A stretch of 64,000 nucleotides of DNA from Escherichia coli (GTDB lineage Bacteria > Pseudomonadota > Gammaproteobacteria > Enterobacterales > Enterobacteriaceae), in NCBI RefSeq assembly GCF_045037415.1, contig NZ_CP173438.1; one strand, given 5' to 3'. Under the pieces are notes generated by a model. The model was not told where the DNA came from, ran no database searches, and saw only the letters and a program-made list of their open reading frames with translations. The first letter of the stretch is position 1. Every line of letters starts with the position of its first letter. This document shows, piece after piece, positions 37,558-61,805 of this stretch. Position numbers and translations under genes: made by a program.

Positions 37558-37866
37558 TTAATTAGCCACGGCAAAATTAAGAAGAGCTTGAATTTTATTC
37601 AAGTGTGCGGGATATTCCATATCATTATCCGCATTGACGTCTTCAATAAACAGTATTAATTCAGTGATCAAATCATTAGCATCTTCATAACTAATACCCG
37701 TCAGTTCTGGTGACGTTTGCGAGCCATAATTAATTGTCAGATTATTCATTACTGACAAAACCAGAATAAAATATTTGTGACATATATCGCAGGTTGTTCG
37801 GTTTCCTAAGGCATAGTACAGCATATTGAGCAATGCCAGTATTCGTCGATTTTGCACATCGTTCAT
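37558..37866 (-). CDS. Hypothetical protein, 102 aa (AT-rich islet gene 2)
   Basis: ORF 10 bp downstream of the lipoprotein gene on the same strand, markedly AT-rich; no recognisable motif. Confidence 0.5.
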   Translation of the reverse strand: MNDVQNRRILALLNMLYYALGNRTTCDICHKYFILVLSVMNNLTINYGSQTSPELTGISYEDANDLITELILFIEDVNADNDMEYPAHLNKIQALLNFAVAN

Positions 37867-37875
37867 AATGACCTC

Positions 37876-38898
37876 CTATAACATAACTCCGCTGGCAATA
37901 AGAAGTTTTGCCAGCTCCTCTGACGCCTGTAGACCACTAATAACTTGAGAACGAAGGATCTCATTTCTACGCTCTAAATCCGCTTTTGAAAGAGATTTAT
38001 TAGAGTATAAATCTTGTAGATGATTTCCTTTATCCATGAAGGCATTAATAGCTTGTATTGCTGGAGCCGCCGGATCAGATGAACGCAATCTGCTTTCATT
38101 AAGATTAATTACTGCACTCAAAAATTCCTGCCTGCTCTTTAATGTCTTAAACTCTATATTTTTAGTATTTGCCTGGGCCTTATTGTAGTAATAAAAATTA
38201 TTACTGATGTTCGCATAATTATTCCGATCCATTTGCTGCTGTTTCGTTGCTATATCATCGAGTAAATCTTGTAAATTTCTTTGAAGTCGAGGCCAGTCAC
38301 TACCTACCGTTTTACCAACATTTTCTGATTTAATCTTCTCTTTGTATAATCCATTGAAATATTGAACTAAATCTTTAACAGCCACAACTGACTTAGTCAA
38401 TTCTTCACCTTCTGAAAGGCCAAGTAGTTTTTGGGCGTTGTTTGCGTGATCGAGCGCCTGATTAAGTAATATAATTTGTTTACTATCCTCAACATCCATA
38501 CCCACCGTCAACAACTCCACATAGGAACTCATACTGTTAACGACCTCAAGTGAAGCCAGTAGTTTTTGTTTTTCTGTTGTTGCCAATTGAATTTTAGTAA
38601 TGTCTTTATACGATGTTTTGCCCCCTTTCTCTGATTGCAAACATAAGGACTCTTTATTAGTATTATTTTCCATAATCGTTTCGTAATCAGGTCGCAATGC
38701 ACAATCCGGATTAGTCGCATAAAAATTAACAAGAAAGTTTTCACGAGAAGCATAGTATTGTTTAAAGAAACTTGCATTCGCCGCAACCGCCTTGTTACCC
38801 GCAGTAATAACAGTTTCAGCTTGTTCATTCTTCAATGCTTCGGTTGCACAACCTGAAAGCATTAACAGCGATAGAAATATTCCACTATATCTAATCAT
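37876..38898 (-). CDS. Hypothetical lipoprotein, 340 aa (AT-rich islet gene 1)
   Basis: Signal peptide with lipobox LMLSGC (Cys17); hydrophilic, helix-rich body; AT-rich codon usage unlike the flanking genes. Confidence 0.6.
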   Translation of the reverse strand: MIRYSGIFLSLLMLSGCATEALKNEQAETVITAGNKAVAANASFFKQYYASRENFLVNFYATNPDCALRPDYETIMENNTNKESLCLQSEKGGKTSYKDITKIQLATTEKQKLLASLEVVNSMSSYVELLTVGMDVEDSKQIILLNQALDHANNAQKLLGLSEGEELTKSVVAVKDLVQYFNGLYKEKIKSENVGKTVGSDWPRLQRNLQDLLDDIATKQQQMDRNNYANISNNFYYYNKAQANTKNIEFKTLKSRQEFLSAVINLNESRLRSSDPAAPAIQAINAFMDKGNHLQDLYSNKSLSKADLERRNEILRSQVISGLQASEELAKLLIASGVML

Positions 38899-39027
38899 AA
38901 CCCACCTCTTGACGTTGAGTTTATCTCAGATAATTAAATAGTAATGTGGCTATTCCCTGGCATTATTCATAAGCAAGTATGAAATTAAATTAAAATACTG
39001 CGACTATTTATCATACTTCAAATGAAG

Positions 39028-48381: not shown

Positions 48382-49575
48382 ATGACAACATTACTTAACC
48401 CCTATTTTGGTGAGTTTGGCGGCATGTACGTGCCACAAATCCTGATGCCCGCTCTGCGCCAGCTGGAAGAAGCTTTTGTCAGCGCGCAAAAAGATCCTGA
48501 ATTTCAGGCTCAGTTCAACGACCTGCTGAAAAACTATGCCGGGCGTCCAACCGCGCTGACCAAATGCCAGAACATTACAGCCGGGACGAACACCACGCTG
48601 TATCTGAAGCGCGAAGATTTGCTGCACGGCGGCGCGCATAAAACTAACCAGGTACTCGGTCAGGCTTTACTGGCGAAGCGGATGGGTAAAACTGAAATTA
48701 TTGCCGAAACCGGTGCCGGTCAGCATGGCGTGGCGTCGGCCCTTGCCAGCGCCCTGCTCGGCCTGAAATGCCGTATTTATATGGGTGCCAAAGACGTTGA
48801 ACGCCAGTCGCCTAACGTTTTCCGGATGCGCTTAATGGGTGCGGAAGTGATCCCGGTGCATAGCGGTTCCGCGACCCTGAAAGATGCCTGTAATGAGGCG
48901 CTACGCGACTGGTCCGGCAGTTATGAAACCGCGCACTATATGCTGGGTACCGCAGCTGGCCCGCATCCTTACCCGACCATTGTGCGTGAGTTTCAGCGGA
49001 TGATTGGCGAAGAAACGAAAGCGCAGATTCTGGAAAGAGAAGGTCGCCTGCCGGATGCCGTTATCGCCTGTGTTGGCGGTGGTTCGAATGCCATCGGTAT
49101 GTTTGCAGATTTCATCAACGAAACCGACGTCGGCCTGATTGGTGTGGAGCCTGGCGGTCACGGTATCGAAACTGGCGAGCACGGCGCACCGTTAAAACAT
49201 GGTCGCGTGGGCATCTATTTCGGTATGAAAGCGCCGATGATGCAAACCGAAGACGGGCAAATTGAAGAGTCTTACTCCATTTCTGCCGGGCTGGATTTCC
49301 CGTCCGTCGGCCCGCAACATGCGTATCTCAACAGCACTGGACGCGCTGATTACGTGTCTATTACCGACGATGAAGCCCTGGAAGCCTTTAAAACGCTTTG
49401 CCTGCATGAAGGGATCATCCCGGCGCTGGAATCCTCCCACGCCCTGGCCCATGCGCTGAAAATGATGCGCGAAAATCCGGAAAAAGAGCAGCTACTGGTG
49501 GTTAACCTTTCCGGTCGCGGCGATAAAGACATCTTCACCGTTCACGATATTTTGAAAGCACGAGGGGAAATCTGA
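48382..49575 (+). CDS. trpB: Tryptophan synthase beta chain
   Basis: 397-aa PLP enzyme (HxGxHK region). Confidence 0.95.
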
Positions 49576-50381
49576 TGGAACGCTACGAATCTCTGTTTGC
49601 CCAGTTGAAGGAGCGCAAAGAAGGCGCATTCGTTCCTTTCGTCACCCTCGGTGATCCGGGCATTGAGCAGTCGCTGAAAATTATCGATACGCTAATTGAA
49701 GCCGGTGCTGACGCGCTGGAGTTAGGCATCCCCTTCTCCGACCCACTGGCGGATGGCCCGACGATTCAAAACGCCACACTGCGTGCCTTTGCGGCGGGTG
49801 TGACCCCGGCGCAGTGCTTTGAGATGCTGGCACTGATTCGTCAAAAACATCCGACCATTCCTGTTGGCCTGCTGATGTACGCCAACCTGGTGTTTAACAA
49901 AGGCATTGATGAGTTTTACGCCCAGTGCGAGAAAGTCGGCGTCGATTCGGTGCTGGTTGCCGATGTGCCAGTTGAAGAGTCCGCGCCCTTCCGCCAGGCC
50001 GCGTTGCGTCATAATGTCGCACCTATCTTTATTTGCCCGCCGAATGCCGACGATGATTTGCTGCGCCAGATAGCCTCCTACGGTCGTGGATACACCTATT
50101 TATTGTCACGTGCGGGCGTGACCGGCGCAGAAAACCGCGCCGCGTTACCCCTCAATCATCTGGTTGCGAAGCTGAAAGAGTACAACGCTGCACCTCCATT
50201 GCAGGGATTTGGTATTTCCGCCCCTGATCAGGTAAAAGCAGCGATTGATGCAGGAGCTGCGGGCGCGATTTCTGGTTCGGCCATCGTTAAAATCATCGAG
50301 CAACATATTAATGAGCCAGAGAAAATGCTGGCGGCACTGAAAGCTTTTGTACAACCGATGAAAGCCACTACACGACGTTAA
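49575..50381 (+). CDS. trpA: Tryptophan synthase alpha chain
   Basis: 268 aa; start overlaps the trpB stop. Confidence 0.95.
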
Positions 50382-50431: not shown

Positions 50432-50569
50432 TTAGAAGCGGTAACCTGCAGAGAACATAAATACCCACGGGTCAAGGCGTACGTTGTCAGAATAACGCCC
50501 TGCAGGCAGCACTGCGCCGTTGGATTTATATTTCACTTCGGTATCGATATCCATGTACCAGACCGACAT
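50432..50569 (-). pseudogene. ompW: ompW 3'-terminal fragment (last 45 codons, ...VRLDPWVFMFSAGYRF), candidate prophage attachment junction
   Basis: Translation ends with the characteristic OmpW C-terminus; the frame is closed by a stop immediately upstream of codon MSVW; the 5' part of the gene is absent from the window. Confidence 0.75.
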
Positions 50570-50756
50570 GTTTTAAAAAATGCAATAAGACATTGTATCT
50601 GAAAGAAAAAACAGGATTTGAGGCGCTTTTTTATACCGTTTTTCCGTGTTTTTAACTGCCTGATTTTATTGAAATCTTTTTTAGTTTTGCAGAAAGGATT
50701 TTTTGCTCGATCGCTTTAATTTTATACATTCCTGATAACGGAAATTTTTTTGCCCG

Positions 50757-53139: not shown

Positions 53140-53373
53140 CACCACCAGCACGACAAGATGCCGCATACAGTGAACCAGTCAGTCCAGTTTTCAGACAACC
53201 AGTGCGTCACCTTTTTGAAGGCGCTTTAAAGCACGTTTTAATCCAGGTCGGCCTGTCCTTGTTCCGCTTAATTTATCTTCAAATATTTGTTCATATCCTG
53301 CACAAACAAGAGCGTTTCGTTGCAGATCTGTATTCTGGTCATTTGTTGATACCCTTACATAGCCAATCAGCAC
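53140..53373 (-). pseudogene. pin: DNA invertase Pin/Gin/Hin family, truncated and interrupted
   Basis: N-terminal serine recombinase signature (V)LIGYVRVSTNDQNTDLQRNAL...LKRLQKGDALVV, then in-frame stop, degenerate sequence and fusion to the tfa remnant about 75 codons in. Confidence 0.8.
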
Positions 53374-53427
53374 GCTGAATCTCCCGTCCAAAAGCACAAA
53401 TCATGCCATGCAGGCCAGAAACCGCCA

Positions 53428-53453
53428 TTATCTAAAACCTCGGTTTACGAGAA
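53428..53453. repeat. Invertase crossover site (pix/gix-like, TTATCTAAAACCTCGGTTTACGAGAA)
   Basis: 26-bp site matching the Gin/Pin crossover consensus, inverted relative to the site at 56509-56534. Confidence 0.85.
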
Positions 53454-54386
53454 CTCGGCACAAGCGGGGAGAAAATACCGTTACTCAGTACAGCGAATAC
53501 CTGGACTAATCGACAAACATTCAGCGGTGGCCTTTCTGGTGAACTATCCGGCAATGCTTCTACAGCTGCAAAATTAAAAACTGCCAGGAAAATAAGCAAT
53601 GTGGCTTTTGATGGTTCCTCCGATATCACATTAAAAGCAAGTCATGTTGGTGCGTTTGCCTTAGGGAAAACAGGAAGCACCGTTGCGAATGATAAAGCAG
53701 TTGGATGGAACTGGAGTAGCGGAGCCTATAACGCAACTATTAGTGGTGCATCAACGTTAATTATTCATTTTTATATGGGAGAAGGAAGTTGTCCTGCAGC
53801 TCAGTTTCGGATTAATTATAAAAATGGCGGTATTTTTTATCGTTCAGCCCGTGATGGTTATGGTTTTGAAGCCGACTGGTCCGAATTTTACACCACCACC
53901 AGAAAGCCTTCAGCAGGAGATGTTGGTGCACTGCCGTTATCTGGTGGTCAACTGAATGGTGCACTGGGTATCGGAACATCCAGTGCTCTTGGCGGTAATT
54001 CGATTGTATTGGGTGATAATGACACGGGCTTTAAACAAAATGGCGATGGTAATCTGGATGTTTATGCTAATAACGTCCATGTTATGCGCTTTGTCTCCGG
54101 AAGCATTCAAAGTAATAAAACCATAAATATTACAGGGCGTGTTAACCCCTCGGATTACGGTAACTTTGATTCCCGTTATGTGAAAGATGTTCGACTTGGT
54201 TCACAGCAATATTATGGAGTGAACAACTGGCAAACATGGAATTTCCAGTGCCCTTCAGGTCATGTATTGTCTGGTATTAATGTTCAGGATACAGGGTCTA
54301 ACTCTGCCGATAATATAGCGGGCGTTTATTACAGACCCGTTCAAAAGTATATAAATGGCACCTGGTATAATGTAGCGAGCGTTTAA
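53441..54386 (+). CDS. Silent alternative tail-fibre C-terminal cassette (receptor-binding domain), in frame from the crossover site
   Basis: Frame open from the crossover site ([61 protein letters not shown]...); shares ALGGNSIxLGDNDTGxKQxGDG and QKYIxGxWYNV motifs with the expressed Stf C-terminus; ORF track lists 53601..54386. Confidence 0.7.
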
Positions 54387-54387
54387 T

Positions 54388-54921
54388 ATGATGCACTTAA
54401 AGAACATAAAAGCGGGTAATGCTAAAACACTGGAACAGTATGAGTTAACAAAGAAACACGGAGTTATCTGGCTTTACTCTGAGGACGGAAAAAACTGGTA
54501 TGAGGAAGTGAAAAACTTTCAGCCAGACACCATAAAGATTGTTTACGATGAAAATAATATTATTGTTGCCATAACCAAAGATGCCTCCACACTTAACCCT
54601 GAAGGTTATAGCGTCGTTGAGATTCCTGATATTACCGCCAACCGGCGTGCTGACGACTCAGGTAAATGGATGTTTAAAGATGGCGCAGTCATTAAACGTG
54701 TATATACCGAAGAAGAGTTGCGCCTACAGACGGAAAACCAGAAAAAAATATTATTACAGCAGGCCAGAGAAAAAACGCAGTTCTGGCAAACACAGCTTAC
54801 TTTGGGGATTATCACTGATTCAGACAGACAGCAACTGATGAACTGGATGCGATACGTGCAACAGGTTGAGACAACTGATACCTCGGTTCTTCCTGTAACA
54901 TTCCCGGAACCACCAGAATAA
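54388..54921 (+). CDS. Tail fibre assembly protein Tfa (cognate to the silent cassette)
   Basis: 177 aa paralogous to the minus-strand Tfa (MxHLKNIxAGNxKT..EQYxLTKK.GVIWLY.EDGKNWY). Confidence 0.8.
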
Positions 54922-54922
54922 G

Positions 54923-54947
54923 AAAAGGCCCGTACGGGCCTTAATTT
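54923..54947. terminator. Bidirectional terminator at the centre of the invertible segment
   Basis: Hairpin aaaaggcccgtacgggcctt between the convergent tfa genes. Confidence 0.6.
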
Positions 54948-54951
54948 GTTG

Positions 54952-55479
54952 TTATTCTGGTTTCTGTGGCCATTCAGGCTTTGCAGTATCCACACGGCTG
55001 ACCATAACGCTGTAGCGTTCCCATGATTCCAGTCGTGTGCGTTCCTCATCAGTTGCCATATTCAGTCTGACAGCACGTTCCAGCGGTTGAATCACAGACT
55101 CCGCTTCGGAAAGCAAAGCGGCTTTTTGTAACTCTGCCTGCTGTTGCAGTTCCTGTTTTGTATATTCCCGCTTTACTACTTTACCATCCAGAAACTTCCA
55201 GTTTCCCGAGATATCGGCGCGACGGTTGGCTGTTATATTCGGTAACTCAACAACACTTAACCCGTCAGGGTTAAGTGTTGATACGTCTTTCTCAATACAA
55301 CGAATAATCCCCTTCTGGTCATAAGCTATTTTTAAAGTATCATCCTGAAAGTTTTTTAATTCGTCATACCAGTTTTTACCGTCTTCTGTATATAGCCAGA
55401 TAACGCCAGCTTTTTTCGTAAGCTGATACTGCTCAATGGTTTTGGGGTTTCCGGCGGTAATATTTTTCAGATGTTGCAT
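54952..55479 (-). CDS. Tail fibre assembly protein Tfa (expressed orientation)
   Basis: 175-aa ORF directly downstream of stf. Confidence 0.85.
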
Positions 55480-55494
55480 ATATTCTCCTGATGG

Positions 55495-58401
55495 CTATGC
55501 CTGTTCAACGTTATACCAGTTACCAGAAATGTATTTTTGTAGTGGTCGTGACACCATCCAGTCATCTCCATCAACCTCACCAATAATTTGCAATCCTGTT
55601 GTCACATGACCATTACCTGGTTCGCAAAGTCCTCCGCGATATAATGTGTCAGAACGTCTGCCTCCCAGACGCACATTTCTGATAAAAGAACTATTCAGGT
55701 AATCATTTAAGTTTGACCCCCAGCACCCACCAAATATATTTCCATCGGTGTTATAACGGACGCCACCCGCAATAAGAGCACCCGGTGAAATAAAGGATTT
55801 ATCGTTCGGGTTAAACTGCCATAAAGCATCATTACCGCCATCGCCACGCATATGAATACATGGAACCGGAAATCCATACTGTTCTGTCAGTAAATACCCA
55901 AAGCTGACCGCGCCGGGATAGCCCTGTCCATTGCGAATGGACAAGCCCTTAACTATCGGCACGTAAAGACCACCAGGAGTGGGATTCCAGGCAAACTGCG
56001 TCTGAACAAAAGGCGCGGTGGCATTATTCAACTGGTCTGCAAATGCGCCACTTCCATCAGGAATTATTCCCTGATGAATATATGCAACCCGCTTATAAAA
56101 ATCAGCAGATGCGGGTTGAAGCCCAAATGCCAGTTGTCCATTTGAATAGAATAAAAGGACACCGTCGCCGCCCTGTTTAATACCAGTGTCGTTATCTCCG
56201 AGAGTAATGGAATTACCGCCCAGTGCGTTATCTGTACCAAGCGCCAGCCCACCATCAATTTTGGCCCCGTGGCTGACAGATATAGCACCTGTTCTCAGAT
56301 TTATAGCGAATGGCCTTAATGGGCCGATATCACCGTTTTCGCCTTGTCCTTCAGCCGTCGGAATGAAATGAAGAAAATCTTCTGAACGACGGAAAATAAG
56401 ACCGAAGGCATCATTGAAAATTCGCAGCGCATTCACCGTGCCAATTTTCAGTTCTCCGGTCATTTTATCGCCGGAACGCTGAACGGCGTTACCAGCCTTG
56501 TTTACCGTTTCCTGTAAACCGAGGTATTCGATAACGGCGGCAACGGTCGATTTCGCAAGAATATCCCGCCCAACTTTTGTCAGGGTTGCCAGACTGGCAA
56601 CATCATTCCCCGTAAAATACGGAAACCTGTCTGCCGCAGTAGCAAGCCCGGCCAGCGCCGTCAGGGTGGCATCTTTCGGTTGCTTACCCGCAAGCGCGCT
56701 AGTCATGGTGGTCGCAAAATTCGGGTCGTTGCCCAACGCCGCAGCCAGCTCGTTCAGCGTATTCAGTGCGTCAGGCGACGAGTCCACGAGGGCAGCGATC
56801 GCAGCCATAACATAAGCCGTGCTTGCGATTTGGGTATTATTCGTTCCCTGTCGCGCAGTTGGTGTTGTTGGCGTTCCGGTCAGTGCAGGACTATTTAAGG
56901 GCGCTTTCTTGTTCGTTTCACCCATTACCGCCTTAACCGCTTTTGGCGTTGCCGCCAGTGACTCGGAAGTGCTGTTGGTCGCACTGCTGAGCTGTACTAT
57001 CCCCTTTTTCGTCGTGCTCGCATCCTCAAGCGCCACGGCGGATGCAATATCCTCTGCCCGTTTTGCCGCTGTCTCGGCGCGCGTTGCCGCGGATTCCGCC
57101 GTACTTTTGCTCTGAGCTGCCGCCGTCGCACTGCCAGCTGCCTCTGTCGCCTTCGTGGATGCCGTCGTGGCGCTGCCCTTTGCTGCTGACGCCTGTCTGG
57201 TCGCCTCATCTTTTGAAGCAGACGCAGATGATGCCGATGACGCCGCTGAACTGGCTGACGATGCGGCTGCCGCCTTAGAGGAAGCAGCATTGTCTGCTGA
57301 AGTCTTTGCATTTGTTTCAGAGGTTTTTGCTGCAGAAGCAGACCTCGCTGCTGCAGTGGCTTGCTCAGTGGCTTTGCCAGCCTTCGTTGTGGCTGTTGAA
57401 GCGGATGATGCGGCGCTTTCTGCCGATTTTCCGGCGGCGGTGGCACTGGCTGAGGCCTGCCCGGCACTTGTTGACGCGGCACTGGCAGATAATGCAGCCG
57501 CTGTTTTTGAACCTGCCGCAGCTGAGGCGCTCTGTCCCGCTGCTGTTTCAGAAGACTTAGCGTTCGTCTCGGACGTTTTTGCCGCCTTCGCGGAATTTCC
57601 TGCCGCCGTTGCCGAGGAAGCTGCACTACTGGCACTTGATGATGCATTCGTTTCTGAAGATTTCGCTGCCTCTTTTGAGGCCGCCGCACCCCGTGCCGAG
57701 GTGGCAGCTTCTGACGCCTTCGTGGTCGCTGTGGATGCAGAAGTGGCTGCCGATTTTTGTGATGCTGCGGCATTCGTTTCTGACGTTTTCGCGGCACTGG
57801 CGCTGGTAGCTGCCGCGCTTTTTGATGACTCTGCAGCAGCAGCACTTTTTGCTGCTTCACGGGCCTTTGTCGATGCCGTTCCTGCGCTGGAAGACGCTGA
57901 CTGAGCCGACGACGCGGCCTGTCCGGCTGACGTGCTGGCGGCACGTGATGAGGCTGCAGCATCGGTTGCATGAGTTGCCGCCTCGCTGGCTGATGCACTG
58001 GCATCGCTGGCTGATTTTTTCGCGGCTGCCGTATTCTGTGCAACCGCGGAGGCGTTACGTGACACCTCTTCTACCATCTGCTCAAAGCGGCGCAGTGCCT
58101 CCGGTCGTACATCATCCTCCGTCATGGCACCGAGAAAATCATTCAGCGTACCTGGTCTGGAACCTTCATAGACGGTAATGGTCCCGGCATGTGAAGGCGG
58201 AAAACCTTCAACCAGCAGGGTGACGCTGTACTGACCATGCTCAACATCCATGCTGTAACGTCCGGCTTCATCCGGATTTTCAGAGGCCACCGTGTTCACC
58301 ACCACCGTGCTGCTGGTTCGTCTGGCCTTCAGCACAATGGTGCAGTTCTGTACTGGTTTTCCTGTGCCATCTTTAAGCACGCCAGAAATTTTTACTGTCA
58401 T
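55495..58401 (-). CDS. stf: Side tail fibre protein Stf (968 aa): lambda-like constant N-terminal part fused at the crossover site to variable C-terminal cassette A
   Basis: N-terminus MTVKISGVLKDGTGKPVQNCTIVLKARR... recognised as lambda Stf-like; long Ala/Ser/Thr-rich repeat region; crossover site encodes IEYLGLQET. Confidence 0.9.
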   Translation of the reverse strand: MTVKISGVLKDGTGKPVQNCTIVLKARRTSSTVVVNTVASENPDEAGRYSMDVEHGQYSVTLLVEGFPPSHAGTITVYEGSRPGTLNDFLGAMTEDDVRPEALRRFEQMVEEVSRNASAVAQNTAAAKKSASDASASASEAATHATDAAASSRAASTSAGQAASSAQSASSSAGTASTKAREAAKSAAAAESSKSAAATSASAAKTSETNAAASQKSAATSASTATTKASEAATSARGAAASKEAAKSSETNASSSASSAASSATAAGNSAKAAKTSETNAKSSETAAGQSASAAAGSKTAAALSASAASTSAGQASASATAAGKSAESAASSASTATTKAGKATEQATAAARSASAAKTSETNAKTSADNAASSKAAAASSASSAASSASSASASKDEATRQASAAKGSATTASTKATEAAGSATAAAQSKSTAESAATRAETAAKRAEDIASAVALEDASTTKKGIVQLSSATNSTSESLAATPKAVKAVMGETNKKAPLNSPALTGTPTTPTARQGTNNTQIASTAYVMAAIAALVDSSPDALNTLNELAAALGNDPNFATTMTSALAGKQPKDATLTALAGLATAADRFPYFTGNDVASLATLTKVGRDILAKSTVAAVIEYLGLQETVNKAGNAVQRSGDKMTGELKIGTVNALRIFNDAFGLIFRRSEDFLHFIPTAEGQGENGDIGPLRPFAINLRTGAISVSHGAKIDGGLALGTDNALGGNSITLGDNDTGIKQGGDGVLLFYSNGQLAFGLQPASADFYKRVAYIHQGIIPDGSGAFADQLNNATAPFVQTQFAWNPTPGGLYVPIVKGLSIRNGQGYPGAVSFGYLLTEQYGFPVPCIHMRGDGGNDALWQFNPNDKSFISPGALIAGGVRYNTDGNIFGGCWGSNLNDYLNSSFIRNVRLGGRRSDTLYRGGLCEPGNGHVTTGLQIIGEVDGDDWMVSRPLQKYISGNWYNVEQA
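56509..56534. repeat. Invertase crossover site inside stf (TTCCTGTAAACCGAGGTATTCGATAA)
   Basis: Reverse complement matches the site at 53428-53453 at 22 of 26 positions; Gin/Pin consensus. Confidence 0.85.
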
Positions 58402-58553
58402 ACTTTTCCACCAATAAAAAAAGCCCGCAGCAGTGACGCCACGGGCTTCAGGACAGTGTAACTTTACGTTTCCTCAAACGCAGTTCACCCCATAAGGTGG
58501 ATGAACCTGCGTATCATAACAATATTTACAGAAGATAAATCGGCGTCTGTTGT

Positions 58554-58775
58554 CAGAAACGGTATCCGATACCAACAATAAATGCATCCGTTCGCCAGTC
58601 GCCACTACCGGAACCTTCATAAGCAAGGTCAATGGTCACGGATTCGGTCGGGTTAAACTGCACGCCAGCCCCCCACGCCAGAGACGTGTTGCTGTGGCGA
58701 CCGTCATCACTTCCGGTCAGCACATCGTGCGTTTTCCCCTTGTTGTCAGTTACGCGGAGATAATCCCCGGAGAAA
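58554..58775 (-). pseudogene. lom: lom 3' fragment (Lom/Ail/OmpX-family outer membrane protein, C-terminal part SGDYLRVTDNKGKTHD...GYRF)
   Basis: Translation recognised as the lambda Lom C-terminus; separated from its N-terminal part by the IS element. Confidence 0.85.
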
Positions 58776-58862
58776 GTTGCGTATTACCGTGAAGGAGATC
58801 GGTGAGTAACATCGATGGAGATCGGTTCGTGTCACTTTCACAGAACCGTTTTTAAATTACCT

Positions 58863-59612
58863 TCACTGATCTCCTTCGGTCAACGGAGATTGTATTTTCC
58901 GCATTGATTCTCCTTTAAGTTCGATCTTGATACTGCCATGAACCAGTCGATCTAGGATGGCATCCGCATGTGTGGAGTCTCCGATCATTTTGTACCAGTT
59001 TTCCACCGGCAACTGGCTCACTACGATGATTGAGCCTCGTTGGTACATCAGATCCACTATTTCCAGCAGGTCGCTACGCTGTTCTGATGAGAGAGGTTCC
59101 AGCCCCCAGTCATCCAGAAGCAGCAGATCGCTATTATTCAGCCTGGTCAAAAGTTTGCTGTATCTTCCATCAGCATGCCCCTGATAGCACTGTTCCATCA
59201 GCGCTTTAAGGCGATAATAGTAGACCTTGTATCCCTGTCGGCAGGCATTATGACCAAGTGCACATGCCAGGAACGTTTTACCGCTGCCGGTGGCCCCGGT
59301 CAGTAAAATATTTTGTTTCAGGGTTAACCAGTTTCCCTGACTGAGTGAACGGATGAGGGCCCTGTCCAGCCCTCTATTGTTACGATAATCCAGCTTTGAT
59401 AACTCAGCATTAAGTCTGAACCGTGCATGTTTGATCAGACGCTCTGCCTTCCTGTTTTCACGGCAGGTTAGTTCTTCTGCTGTCAGTAATGACAGGCGTT
59501 CTTCGAAGCCCAGCTCCTGGTATGTGCCCGGTTGAGCAAGTTGCTTTTTAAGCGCATCACGGAAGCCGGTGAGTTTAAGTGCGGTCAGTTGTTCGTAAAG
59601 ATGATTCATCAT
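58863..59612 (-). CDS. istB: IS21-family helper protein IstB (AAA+ ATPase)
   Basis: Walker A GATGSGKTF, Walker B LLLDDWG; 249 aa. Confidence 0.85.
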   Translation of the reverse strand: MMNHLYEQLTALKLTGFRDALKKQLAQPGTYQELGFEERLSLLTAEELTCRENRKAERLIKHARFRLNAELSKLDYRNNRGLDRALIRSLSQGNWLTLKQNILLTGATGSGKTFLACALGHNACRQGYKVYYYRLKALMEQCYQGHADGRYSKLLTRLNNSDLLLLDDWGLEPLSSEQRSDLLEIVDLMYQRGSIIVVSQLPVENWYKMIGDSTHADAILDRLVHGSIKIELKGESMRKIQSPLTEGDQ

Positions 59613-59623
59613 TGGATCCCGTA

Positions 59624-61165
59624 TCAGTGGTAATACTCACTGCCGCGTACGTTTTCGTGTTCCATCGTGGATAACAGATCTGGTTTTGGATCCTGAACAG
59701 GTTGTTTATCCAGACCTTTTTCCAGGATCGATTTAATACCTGACAGACGCCATACCTTTGTTTTCAGAGCTCTTGCACATGCTGCATTAAGTCTGGCTTT
59801 ACTGTATTTTTTATGAAGGTTCAGGAGTCCAAGGCAGAAGCGATAGCTTTGTTCCGGATGTGGACGAGAGTTCAGTATATGAAGCACATAACTATGAGTT
59901 TCACTGCCTATGTGCCCCGCCCATTCCAGAAGACGCTCTGGCGTCCAGGTGGCATGCTGTCGATGAGCTTCAGGCATGTGCTCGTTGCGGGTACTGTAGC
60001 CATAAGTACGCTTGCGCGGGTGCACAGCAACCTCCTGCCCCTGATTGAAGAGTCTTACCAGTTCTCCGGAGATCCATGCTTCCAGTTGCTGGCCTAACAG
60101 CGAACATGGAACCGAGTAGTAATGTTTGTCGATTTCCACGTGGTAATCGGCATGAACTCTGACTTTCTTCACCAGGGTGTAACTGTAACTGGCTTCAGGA
60201 AGAGGCTTCAGTGCGGGTTTATCAAGCTGGATGAAGAGTTCTGCACGTGAATAACCCAACTTCTGCATTATTTTGTTATTCAGTCTTTCCAGCAACTCCC
60301 GAATGCGCTGATTAAGCGATGCAAGGCTGTAGAAGATCTCATGCCTGATTCGGGCCATGATCCAGCGTTCAACAACCTGAACGCCAACTTCAGCTTTGGC
60401 TTTATCTTTCGGTTTACGTGGCCGCGCAGGCAAAACTGCGACATTATAATGCTCAAGCATCTGCTGGTAGGTAGGGTTAACGTCAGGATCATACTTACAT
60501 GCCCTGGATGTGGCGCTTTTCAGATTGTCCGGAACAACAAGTTCAGGAACGCCACCCAACCACTGGAAGCAGCGAACATGACTCATCACCCAGTCTTCAA
60601 GCTGCTGAGACCAGGTGGCCTCTGCCCATGTGTAACTTGATGCCCCGAGAACAGCTACGATGACCTGAGCAGTTCTTATTTCTCCGGTCTCAGGGTCGGT
60701 AACGCCAACGGTAGGTCCACAGTAATCAACGAAAAGTTTTTCGCCAGCTTTATGTACCTGACGCATTGATGGTGAAGTGGTTTTGAGCCATTCACGGTAC
60801 ATCCGGCAGTAATGGTTATAGCTGTAAAAACCGCCTGGATTACGCTCACAGTATTCTTCCCAGAGTAGCTGCAGCGTCACGCATTTATTACGCAGTTCCC
60901 GGTGTACTGTAGCCCAGTCAGGCAGAGAGTGCTTCTTCATCTTAACCTGGGTCTGAAGGAACGCATGTTTTAGTTTTGTATCATCCCATCCTGTAGGTAA
61001 GGGCCACTGCTTTATGCCAAGTTGAGCCGCCCGATTAGCATATCTGGATACAACGGAAGGGGAGATTGCAAGACTACGACCAATTTGTCGATGGCTGAGT
61101 CCAACACCGTATTTAAGCCTAAGAATTTCTTTAAGTTTTCTCATAGAAATTGGAACTGTTGGCAT
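59624..61165 (-). CDS. istA: IS21-family transposase IstA
   Basis: N-terminal helix-turn-helix and DDE-type integrase core upstream of istB; the 513-aa ORF is longer than typical IstA, so the true start may be internal. Confidence 0.75.
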   Translation of the reverse strand: MPTVPISMRKLKEILRLKYGVGLSHRQIGRSLAISPSVVSRYANRAAQLGIKQWPLPTGWDDTKLKHAFLQTQVKMKKHSLPDWATVHRELRNKCVTLQLLWEEYCERNPGGFYSYNHYCRMYREWLKTTSPSMRQVHKAGEKLFVDYCGPTVGVTDPETGEIRTAQVIVAVLGASSYTWAEATWSQQLEDWVMSHVRCFQWLGGVPELVVPDNLKSATSRACKYDPDVNPTYQQMLEHYNVAVLPARPRKPKDKAKAEVGVQVVERWIMARIRHEIFYSLASLNQRIRELLERLNNKIMQKLGYSRAELFIQLDKPALKPLPEASYSYTLVKKVRVHADYHVEIDKHYYSVPCSLLGQQLEAWISGELVRLFNQGQEVAVHPRKRTYGYSTRNEHMPEAHRQHATWTPERLLEWAGHIGSETHSYVLHILNSRPHPEQSYRFCLGLLNLHKKYSKARLNAACARALKTKVWRLSGIKSILEKGLDKQPVQDPKPDLLSTMEHENVRGSEYYH

Positions 61166-61357
61166 AGGTATCCTTTACCGGAATGGCAAAAGATACAGAT
61201 CAACACACCTGTGAAGTTCCAATAACATTGATGGAGATCACTGAATAACAAAATGAGTCAAAAGTGATCTCCATCGATGTTATTCAGCGATCTGTTCAAA
61301 TGTTATTACCCGATCTCGATGGAAGTTATTGAGTGATCTCCTTTCATGAAAATACGC

Positions 61358-61738
61358 AAAAGTCGACACACGGCTGTAAGCCACACCCGCCATCGCATAC
61401 GCGCTGAACCATTCATTCACGCGTACAGACGGCCCCGCCATCACGCTGAACCAGCGGTTACGCACGGAATCTTCATGCCAGCGGGTATCGCTGTAGCGCG
61501 TTTTTTGCTCATCCTCAGCATTGGCATAACTGAAGGACGTAATCAGCCCCAGCGCGTCCGTAAACTCATAACGGTATTTCACGTTAATCCCGTTCAGATC
61601 ATCACTACCGGGAACGTTCGTCGAGGCATGGAGATACCCCGCGCTCAGCGTGGACTGATGTTCTGCTGCACTCGCTGGCGTAGCAGCGGCGACCTGCCAG
61701 ACTACTGCGGACAAAATAACAGCACATAATTTACGCAT
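61358..61738 (-). pseudogene. lom: lom 5' fragment (signal peptide and first beta-strands, MRKLCAVILSAVV...AYSRVSTF)
   Basis: Recognised as the lambda Lom N-terminus; the ORF track extends it into the IS end (61280..61738). Confidence 0.85.
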
Positions 61739-61765
61739 AATTACCTCTCGCTTTTCTGCAATAAA

Positions 61766-61790
61766 AAAGGCGCCATTTCTGGCGCCCGTA
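61766..61790 (-). terminator. Hairpin with T-tract downstream of J
   Basis: ggcgcca-tttc-tggcgcc followed by TTTTTTATT on the minus strand. Confidence 0.5.
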
Positions 61791-61805
61791 TCTGGGTTAT
61801 AAAAT

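Follow-up and report, generated by a model that had tools for sequence, protein, structure and literature searches.

Here, we describe the disruption of lom, an accessory gene of a lambda-like prophage, by a complete copy of ISEc12, an insertion sequence (IS) of the IS21 family, in a 64,000-nucleotide stretch of Escherichia coli DNA (contig NZ_CP173438.1 of assembly GCF_045037415.1), referred to below as the window. The explanation that we favour, with a probability of about 0.96, is that one complete ISEc12 transposed into lom of Phi4, a prophage of E. coli sequence type 131 (ST131), in a single event and was then inherited vertically with the prophage. The insertion is already known, in that the IS is catalogued and the exact insertion is annotated in hundreds of public ST131 genomes, and it is an ordinary one, with a modest importance that goes little past bookkeeping. 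No specific description of lom::ISEc12 in ST131 was found in the literature, and the text of the genome paper of ST131 strain EC958 has no occurrence of ‘lom’ or ‘IS21’. What the junction offers is a stable marker of the ST131 Phi4 prophage lineage, a further example of ISEc12 activity shaping ST131 besides the published disruption of tssM, and the lesson that neither an undamaged target duplication nor intact transposase frames are in themselves proof of a recent insertion.

Structure of the insertion

The element was delimited by direct reading of positions 58400-61800, and the insertion comprises the following parts.

58778-61358, minus strand: complete ISEc12 (IS21 family), 2581 bp, 100% identical over 2581 bp to annotated ‘IS21-like element ISEc12 family’ copies
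58773-58777: target-site duplication AAAGT, istB-proximal side (a single AAAGT in the empty site)
61359-61363: target-site duplication AAAGT, istA-proximal side (a single AAAGT in the empty site)
61309-61358, minus strand: left (istA-proximal) terminal inverted repeat, ending on the plus strand in AATACGCA, with motifs GATCTCC (61335) and GATCTC (61312)
58778-58827, minus strand: right (istB-distal) terminal inverted repeat, starting on the plus strand with TGCGTATT, with GGAGATC at 58794 and 58817
59624-61165, minus strand: istA, 513-aa transposase with an N-terminal helix-turn-helix (HTH), a DDE integrase core and a Mu-transposase-C-like domain (NCBIfam NF033546, Pfam and Protein Data Bank (PDB) matches)
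58863-59612, minus strand: istB, 249-aa AAA+ helper ATPase (NF038214, Pfam IstB_IS21 and PDB matches, Walker motifs)
61359-61738, minus strand: lom 5' fragment, nt 1-380 of the 600-nt gene (127 codons, duplication included), Pfam Ail_Lom 1-131 of 199, E 3e-82
58553-58777, minus strand: lom 3' fragment, the final 72 codons and stop (duplication copy included), Pfam Ail_Lom 145-199 of 199, E 2e-28

Both transposition genes run in the same direction as the prophage genes J, lom and stf, the last encoding the side tail fibre. On the plus strand of the window, the left junction reads CCCCGGAG-AAAGT-TGCGTATTACCGTGAAGGAGATC, the sequence 5' of AAAGT ending in GGAG, and the right junction reads GATCTCCTTTCATGAAAATACGCA-AAAGT-CGACAC. 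The initial annotation of this DNA had recognized the element and its AAAGT duplication correctly but had placed them at 58771-61362 with an element length of 2582 bp, a span shifted by 2 bp at its left end and by 1 bp at its right end relative to the true 58773-61363 (duplication copies included); the element itself is 58778-61358 and 2581 bp long.

The ends have the organization expected of the IS21 family, namely imperfect inverted repeats of the form 5'-TG...CA-3' with repeated internal motifs at both ends. The two repeats align across ~50 nt with a single 1-nt gap, the outermost 8 nt (TGCGTATT) matching perfectly, and each contains two copies of a GGAGATC/GAGATC motif. Further copies of the left-end motif are found at 61266 and 61233, within the 193-bp stretch upstream of istA, and an inverted copy of GGAGATC is found at 58868. 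Target duplications of IS21-family elements span 4-8 bp in ISfinder descriptions; the 5-bp AAAGT falls within this range and is backed by an exact empty site and by four other full copies of the element, so that the terminal repeats and duplication originally proposed both hold. The element is the only one of its kind here, as its 23-nt left terminus occurs once in the window, against zero occurrences expected in shuffles, and neither a BLAST search of the element against the 64-kb window nor the terminus search found a second ISEc12 sequence. A promoter scan inside the element found sites no more numerous than by chance.

The interrupted gene and its empty site

The lom gene encodes an outer-membrane beta-barrel protein of the Ail/Lom family and is an accessory gene of the kind known as a ‘moron’. 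Its fragments match the Ail/Lom family profile (PF06316) in two separate frames, at 61280-61738 (profile positions 1-131) and 58553-58723 (positions 145-199), the former continuing for 25 codons into ISEc12 before reaching a stop at 61280. When 58778-61363, that is the element and one AAAGT, is deleted, the fragments join in an open 600-nt frame of 199 aa that reads AYSRVSTFSGDYLRVT, with AYSRVSTF followed by SGDYLRVT across the join, exactly as had been predicted from the window. The insertion target is thus nt 376-380 of lom.

The two halves are indeed contiguous in other strains. The reconstructed 815-bp empty site (58400-58777 joined to 61364-61800) is identical at 815/815 positions in many E. 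coli chromosomes, where the matches are annotated as an intact 600-nt Ail/Lom family outer membrane beta-barrel gene; genomes with any match hold a median of two such places. An example is the lom gene of the O104:H4 strain 2011C-3493 (WP_001228314.1). Here, 100% identity extends over the full 815 bp, which cover the 199-aa Lom together with the beginning of the tail-fibre gene and the intergenic regions on both sides; this lom has no IS and belongs to another lambdoid prophage, at a different chromosomal site next to yecD, where gpJ and a tail-fibre gene border it.

In the interrupted gene, the C-terminal 72 of the 199 Lom residues, a third of the barrel, are predicted to be lost and this lom copy is almost certainly inactive, because its beta-barrel cannot be complete. 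Strong terminator-like hairpins with T-runs were observed on the lom coding strand (minus) just upstream (61768-61787) and just downstream (58420-58449) of the gene. Such an arrangement fits a lom that, as is classic for a lambdoid ‘moron’, is insulated from both J and stf and expressed as an independent accessory gene, the loss of which should not harm the phage.

Transposition genes and proposed mechanism

Assignment of the istA-istB pair to the IS21 family, made in the initial annotation, is upheld by profile searches. IstA scores 310.5 bits against NCBIfam NF033546 (‘IS21 family transposase’, cutoff 160), contains the Pfam domains rve and Mu-transpos_C_2, and matches the IstA of IS5376 in PDB entries 8b4h and 8q4d (E ~3e-13). 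IstB scores 270 bits against NF038214 (‘IS21-like element helper ATPase IstB’, cutoff 200), matches Pfam IstB_IS21 with an E-value of 2e-67 and IS5376 IstB in PDB entries 8q3w and 5bq5 (E 2e-27 to IS5376 IstB), and carries a Walker A motif that begins at residue 106 and fits G..G.GK[ST], together with a Walker B motif, LLLLDD, at residue 163. The genes follow one another on one strand in the order istA then istB, as is usual for the family, with 11 nt between the istA stop and the istB start and with both frames intact. ISEc12 shares with IS21 and IS5376 this pair of genes for an HTH and DDE protein and an AAA+ protein, several transposase-binding repeats per end, a terminal CA-3' and a short duplication. 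The sequence relationship is only distant, however, and the 513-aa ISEc12 IstA is longer in its C-terminal region than the IS5376 IstA chains in the PDB (373-406 aa).

Transposition in the IS21 family depends on both IstA and IstB and proceeds via a reactive junction of abutted ends; for ISEc12, its numerous sites of insertion and a copy number that varies between genomes point to such a process only indirectly. By analogy with the family, IstA would bind the repeated GGAGATC-type sites of both ends and cleave at the terminal CA-3', IstB would capture and deliver the target DNA, and cuts staggered by 5 bp would give rise to the AAAGT duplication. Insertion at nt 376-380 cuts Lom short after residue 127 of 199 and would so inactivate this copy of lom. 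We suggest that this happened once, either in an ancestor of the lineage or earlier, in the phage prior to lysogeny of that ancestor, with vertical inheritance alongside the prophage thereafter.

Identity and abundance of the element

Going by RefSeq/PGAP (Prokaryotic Genome Annotation Pipeline) annotation and a published description (PMC10711316), the mobile element in lom is the known insertion sequence ISEc12. Across its 2581 bp it is 100% identical to RefSeq copies annotated as ‘IS21-like element ISEc12 family transposase / helper ATPase IstB’, and an identical DNA copy of istA carries the annotation WP_001298859.1. Comparison with copies in other genomes, which are ISEc12 by annotation, places matches in 1908 of 5426 complete E. 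coli genomes, with a median of 3 and a maximum of 17 places per positive genome; 4548 places are chromosomal and 1000 are on plasmids, and 2221 records hold a copy at at least 99% identity. A published copy is the insertion in tssM of EC958, which has the 5-bp duplication ACTGC and is lineage-defining for ST131 clade C (PMC10711316). The lom copy has the same TG...CA ends as the ISEc12 of RefSeq genomes and EC958 tssM and likewise a duplication of 5 bp, and its proteins are IstA WP_001298859.1 and IstB WP_001016257.1 (identical locus in NZ_CP063774.1); only the insertion site differs, being lom of Phi4 instead of tssM. Other sites seen among the loci fetched include ypfH and plasmid genes. Since the copy is structurally complete, is identical to copies elsewhere and belongs to an element that has clearly moved within ST131 and has inserted at many sites, tssM of the clade C ancestor among them, the suggestion in the initial annotation that it may still be active is a reasonable one.

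The host prophage

Over its last 25 kb, the window is identical or almost identical to many chromosomes, among them several labelled O25b:H4-ST131. In a matching ST131 record, the chromosome runs cysB-topA-...-rluB-yciQ-trpLEDCBA, followed by a truncated ompW and then the prophage. From ompW inwards, the latter consists of ash, rha, tail-fibre assembly gene fragments, a methyltransferase gene and a truncated invertase gene, then an alternative tail-fibre C-terminus with its tfa, followed by tfa, stf, lom::ISEc12 and J, and beyond J by tail and head genes as far as the portal gene, where the fetched stretch ends. ST131 records annotate the locus as two Ail/Lom pseudogene fragments flanking istB/istA. 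Within the window, an ompW 3' fragment (~50432-50572) directly follows trpA (49575-50381), and the prophage has therefore integrated in ompW, separating this end of the gene from the rest.

The prophage is Phi4 of ST131 strain EC958, integrated in ompW beside trpA, an identification made because the gene layout fits the invertible tail-fibre segment of EC958 near trpCF and its truncated invertase. In EC958, this segment occupies 1,484,784-1,487,890, with trpCF a few kb away at 1,493,217, and the invertase is truncated (PMC4134206). With the exception of Phi6, the prophages of EC958 are prevalent across almost the whole of clade C and mostly missing from SE15, a strain of clade A (PMC4134206). 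The initial annotation had seen the insertion as further evidence that this arm of the prophage is decaying, which is true of the end near ompW, with its tail-fibre assembly gene fragments and truncated invertase, but not of the remainder, where stf (968 aa) and the two tfa genes have open frames and the structural genes, portal to J, are intact by annotation.

Distribution and age of the insertion

A 600-bp query located the lom::ISEc12 junction in 344 complete RefSeq genomes and a 60-bp query in 342, the latter count being restricted to places with at least 80% coverage (half-matches still passed at an E-value of 8e-6). The trpA/ompW'/ash junction between chromosome and prophage is likewise found in 344 genomes, and the first 15 records listed for the two junctions are identical, as is their order. 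Because the count of the IS junction equals that of the prophage junction, the insertion is, on this distribution, an inherited, lineage-wide feature of ST131 and not a recent event in this isolate, and virtually every sequenced carrier of Phi4 would have ISEc12 in lom. Among the genomes with this prophage junction, no carrier with an empty lom at this chromosomal location was seen, and where 100% identical empty sites were examined, they belonged to other prophages located elsewhere.

Direct observation covers the identity and boundaries of the element, its duplication, the precise empty site and how the junction is distributed. Several points limit the explanation built on them. The two sets of 344 genomes are equal in size and share their top rows, which is less than identity of membership, and the ST131 assignment of the junction genomes comes from record names, with only some named O25b:H4-ST131. 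The name ISEc12 derives from RefSeq/PGAP annotation and one paper and not from the ISfinder reference entry, although nothing was found that contradicts it. Finally, the chemistry of transposition, the loss of Lom function and the continued activity of this copy are inferred.

The alternative that survives best differs only in timing: ISEc12 may have entered lom in another host, with the phage reaching the ST131 ancestor already carrying it. The equal numbers of genomes with the prophage and IS junctions are compatible with such an order of events, as is the failure to see an intermediate with the prophage at ompW and lom intact. We nonetheless consider it distinctly the less likely order, as the matching counts reveal no lom::ISEc12 junction outside the set with this chromosomal junction, and the packaging limit of the phage would have to tolerate a 2.6-kb addition (the prophage extends past the window). 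The counts themselves cannot tell insertion after lysogeny from insertion in the phage beforehand.

A further, improbable reading is that lom is a preferred or selected target for inactivation by IS in resident lambdoid prophages, so that lom::ISEc12 became fixed across the pandemic clone ST131 by selection rather than hitch-hiking. Were this so, losing a surface-exposed protein expressed by the lysogen could be advantageous, with ISEc12 in Phi4 and IS5 in the Rac prophage of E. coli K-12 as its cases. The parallel with Rac, drawn already in the initial annotation, is a real one: the MG1655 annotation has two lomR fragments around IS5Y, followed by stfR, tfaR and pinR, and both prophages thus have an Ail/Lom-family accessory gene, situated between the tail genes and the side-tail-fibre gene, that is split by an IS. 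The IS in Rac is, however, an IS5 with a single transposase gene, the position in the gene, the prophage and the lineage also differ, and Rac is heavily deleted and cryptic whereas the structural genes seen in Phi4 are annotated as intact. The parallel is probably a coincidence of neutral targets. No case for a hotspot can be made from two examples in a gene that is dispensable, and we regard selection for the loss of lom as improbable.

Even less credible is the view, taken in the initial annotation, that the insertion is recent and specific to the prophage of this isolate. The intact duplication, the intact frames of both genes and the 100% identity to other copies would all suit a recent event, but an intact duplication says little about age on the time scale of a lineage, and the distribution over 342-344 complete genomes, from many countries and hosts and equal in number to the genomes with the prophage-chromosome junction, refutes it. 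The lack of any carrier seen with an empty site at this location, the empty sites examined being in other prophages, tells against it further, and the sources and sizes of the genomes argue against near-identical resequencing of one strain.

Exact ends and other copies of ISEc12

The boundaries of the element could in principle be drawn differently, since T58777 and A61359 would lengthen the inverted repeat by one complementary base (TTGCG...CGCAA), and duplications of 3, 4 and 5 bp all regenerate the same empty site, as do the four possible parsings of the junctions. An element of 2582 or 2583 bp with a duplication of 4 or 3 bp is nevertheless ruled out, and we give it next to no credence, because the ends and duplications of other copies fix the choice. 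All four of the other full copies (4/4) are 2581 bp long, are bounded by TGCG...CGCA and are flanked by unrelated bases that form 5-bp duplications, as listed below.

Locus L007: full ISEc12 copy, duplication AGAGA
Locus L009, in ypfH: full ISEc12 copy, duplication CAAGG
Locus L010, on a plasmid: full ISEc12 copy, duplication ACCCG
Locus L011: full ISEc12 copy, duplication GGTGC

These four independent copies establish ISEc12 as a 2581-bp element with a 5-bp duplication. Left-end matches at other sites mostly start exactly at TGCG, duplications of 5 bp also occur at three miniature derivatives of ISEc12, and the published ISEc12 duplication is of the same length (PMC10711316). Three of the six loci fetched for duplication measurement (L005, L006 and L008) contained short end fragments or miniature derivatives in place of a full copy.

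Each of the miniature derivatives is gene-less and has a duplication of its own. One, at L011 1474-1535 (NZ_AP022525.1), is a 62-bp sequence in which both ends are fused (nt 1-30 and 2547-2581), with the duplication CCTGG; a 114-bp derivative in psiA (nt 1-99 and 2557-2581; L006 2801-2914, NZ_CP168269.1) has the duplication ACCGG; and a third, in cbtA, with the duplication CGTAC, is itself split by an IS3-family element (L008 2801-2833 and 4462-4495, NZ_LR890508.1). They look like elements of the miniature inverted-repeat transposable element (MITE) type, mobilized in trans by ISEc12. Best matches in two pieces over 3299 bp had been considered as a tandem (IS21)2-like junction or as an insertion within the IS, and this was rejected, the second piece being the 62-bp mini-element ~680 bp from a full copy.

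A different irregularity was met in NZ_CP015085.1 (L001), in which istA has an internal stop and many neighbouring genes are frameshifted. As other genomes match the window at 100% there, these defects are probably sequencing errors of the assembly and not biology.

Neighbouring features

The remnant of the invertible tail-fibre switch, corresponding to the published EC958 Phi4 segment, occupies ~53190-55480 of the window and contains convergent tail-fibre assembly genes at 54388-54921 (plus) and 54952-55479 (minus), an alternative tail-fibre C-terminal fragment at ~53493-54386 (plus) and a truncated Pin/Gin-type invertase at ~53194-53373 (minus). In EC958, the Phi4 segment was seen in both orientations despite the truncated invertase (PMC4134206), and its inversion presumably uses an invertase supplied in trans.

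The adjacent side tail fibre (968 aa; 55495-58401, minus) has a long, low-complexity central region rich in Ala, Ser and Thr. This low complexity produces long spurious open reading frames in other frames, such as 56997-58043 (minus) and 57155-57904 (plus), and some genomes that are otherwise identical have stf annotated as a partial pseudogene. Outside the prophage, the ST131 chromosome has two genes between cobO and rluB whose annotation says no more than hypothetical (WP_001000715.1 and WP_000622024.1); they lie at ~37560-38900 of the window (L002 10558-11898).

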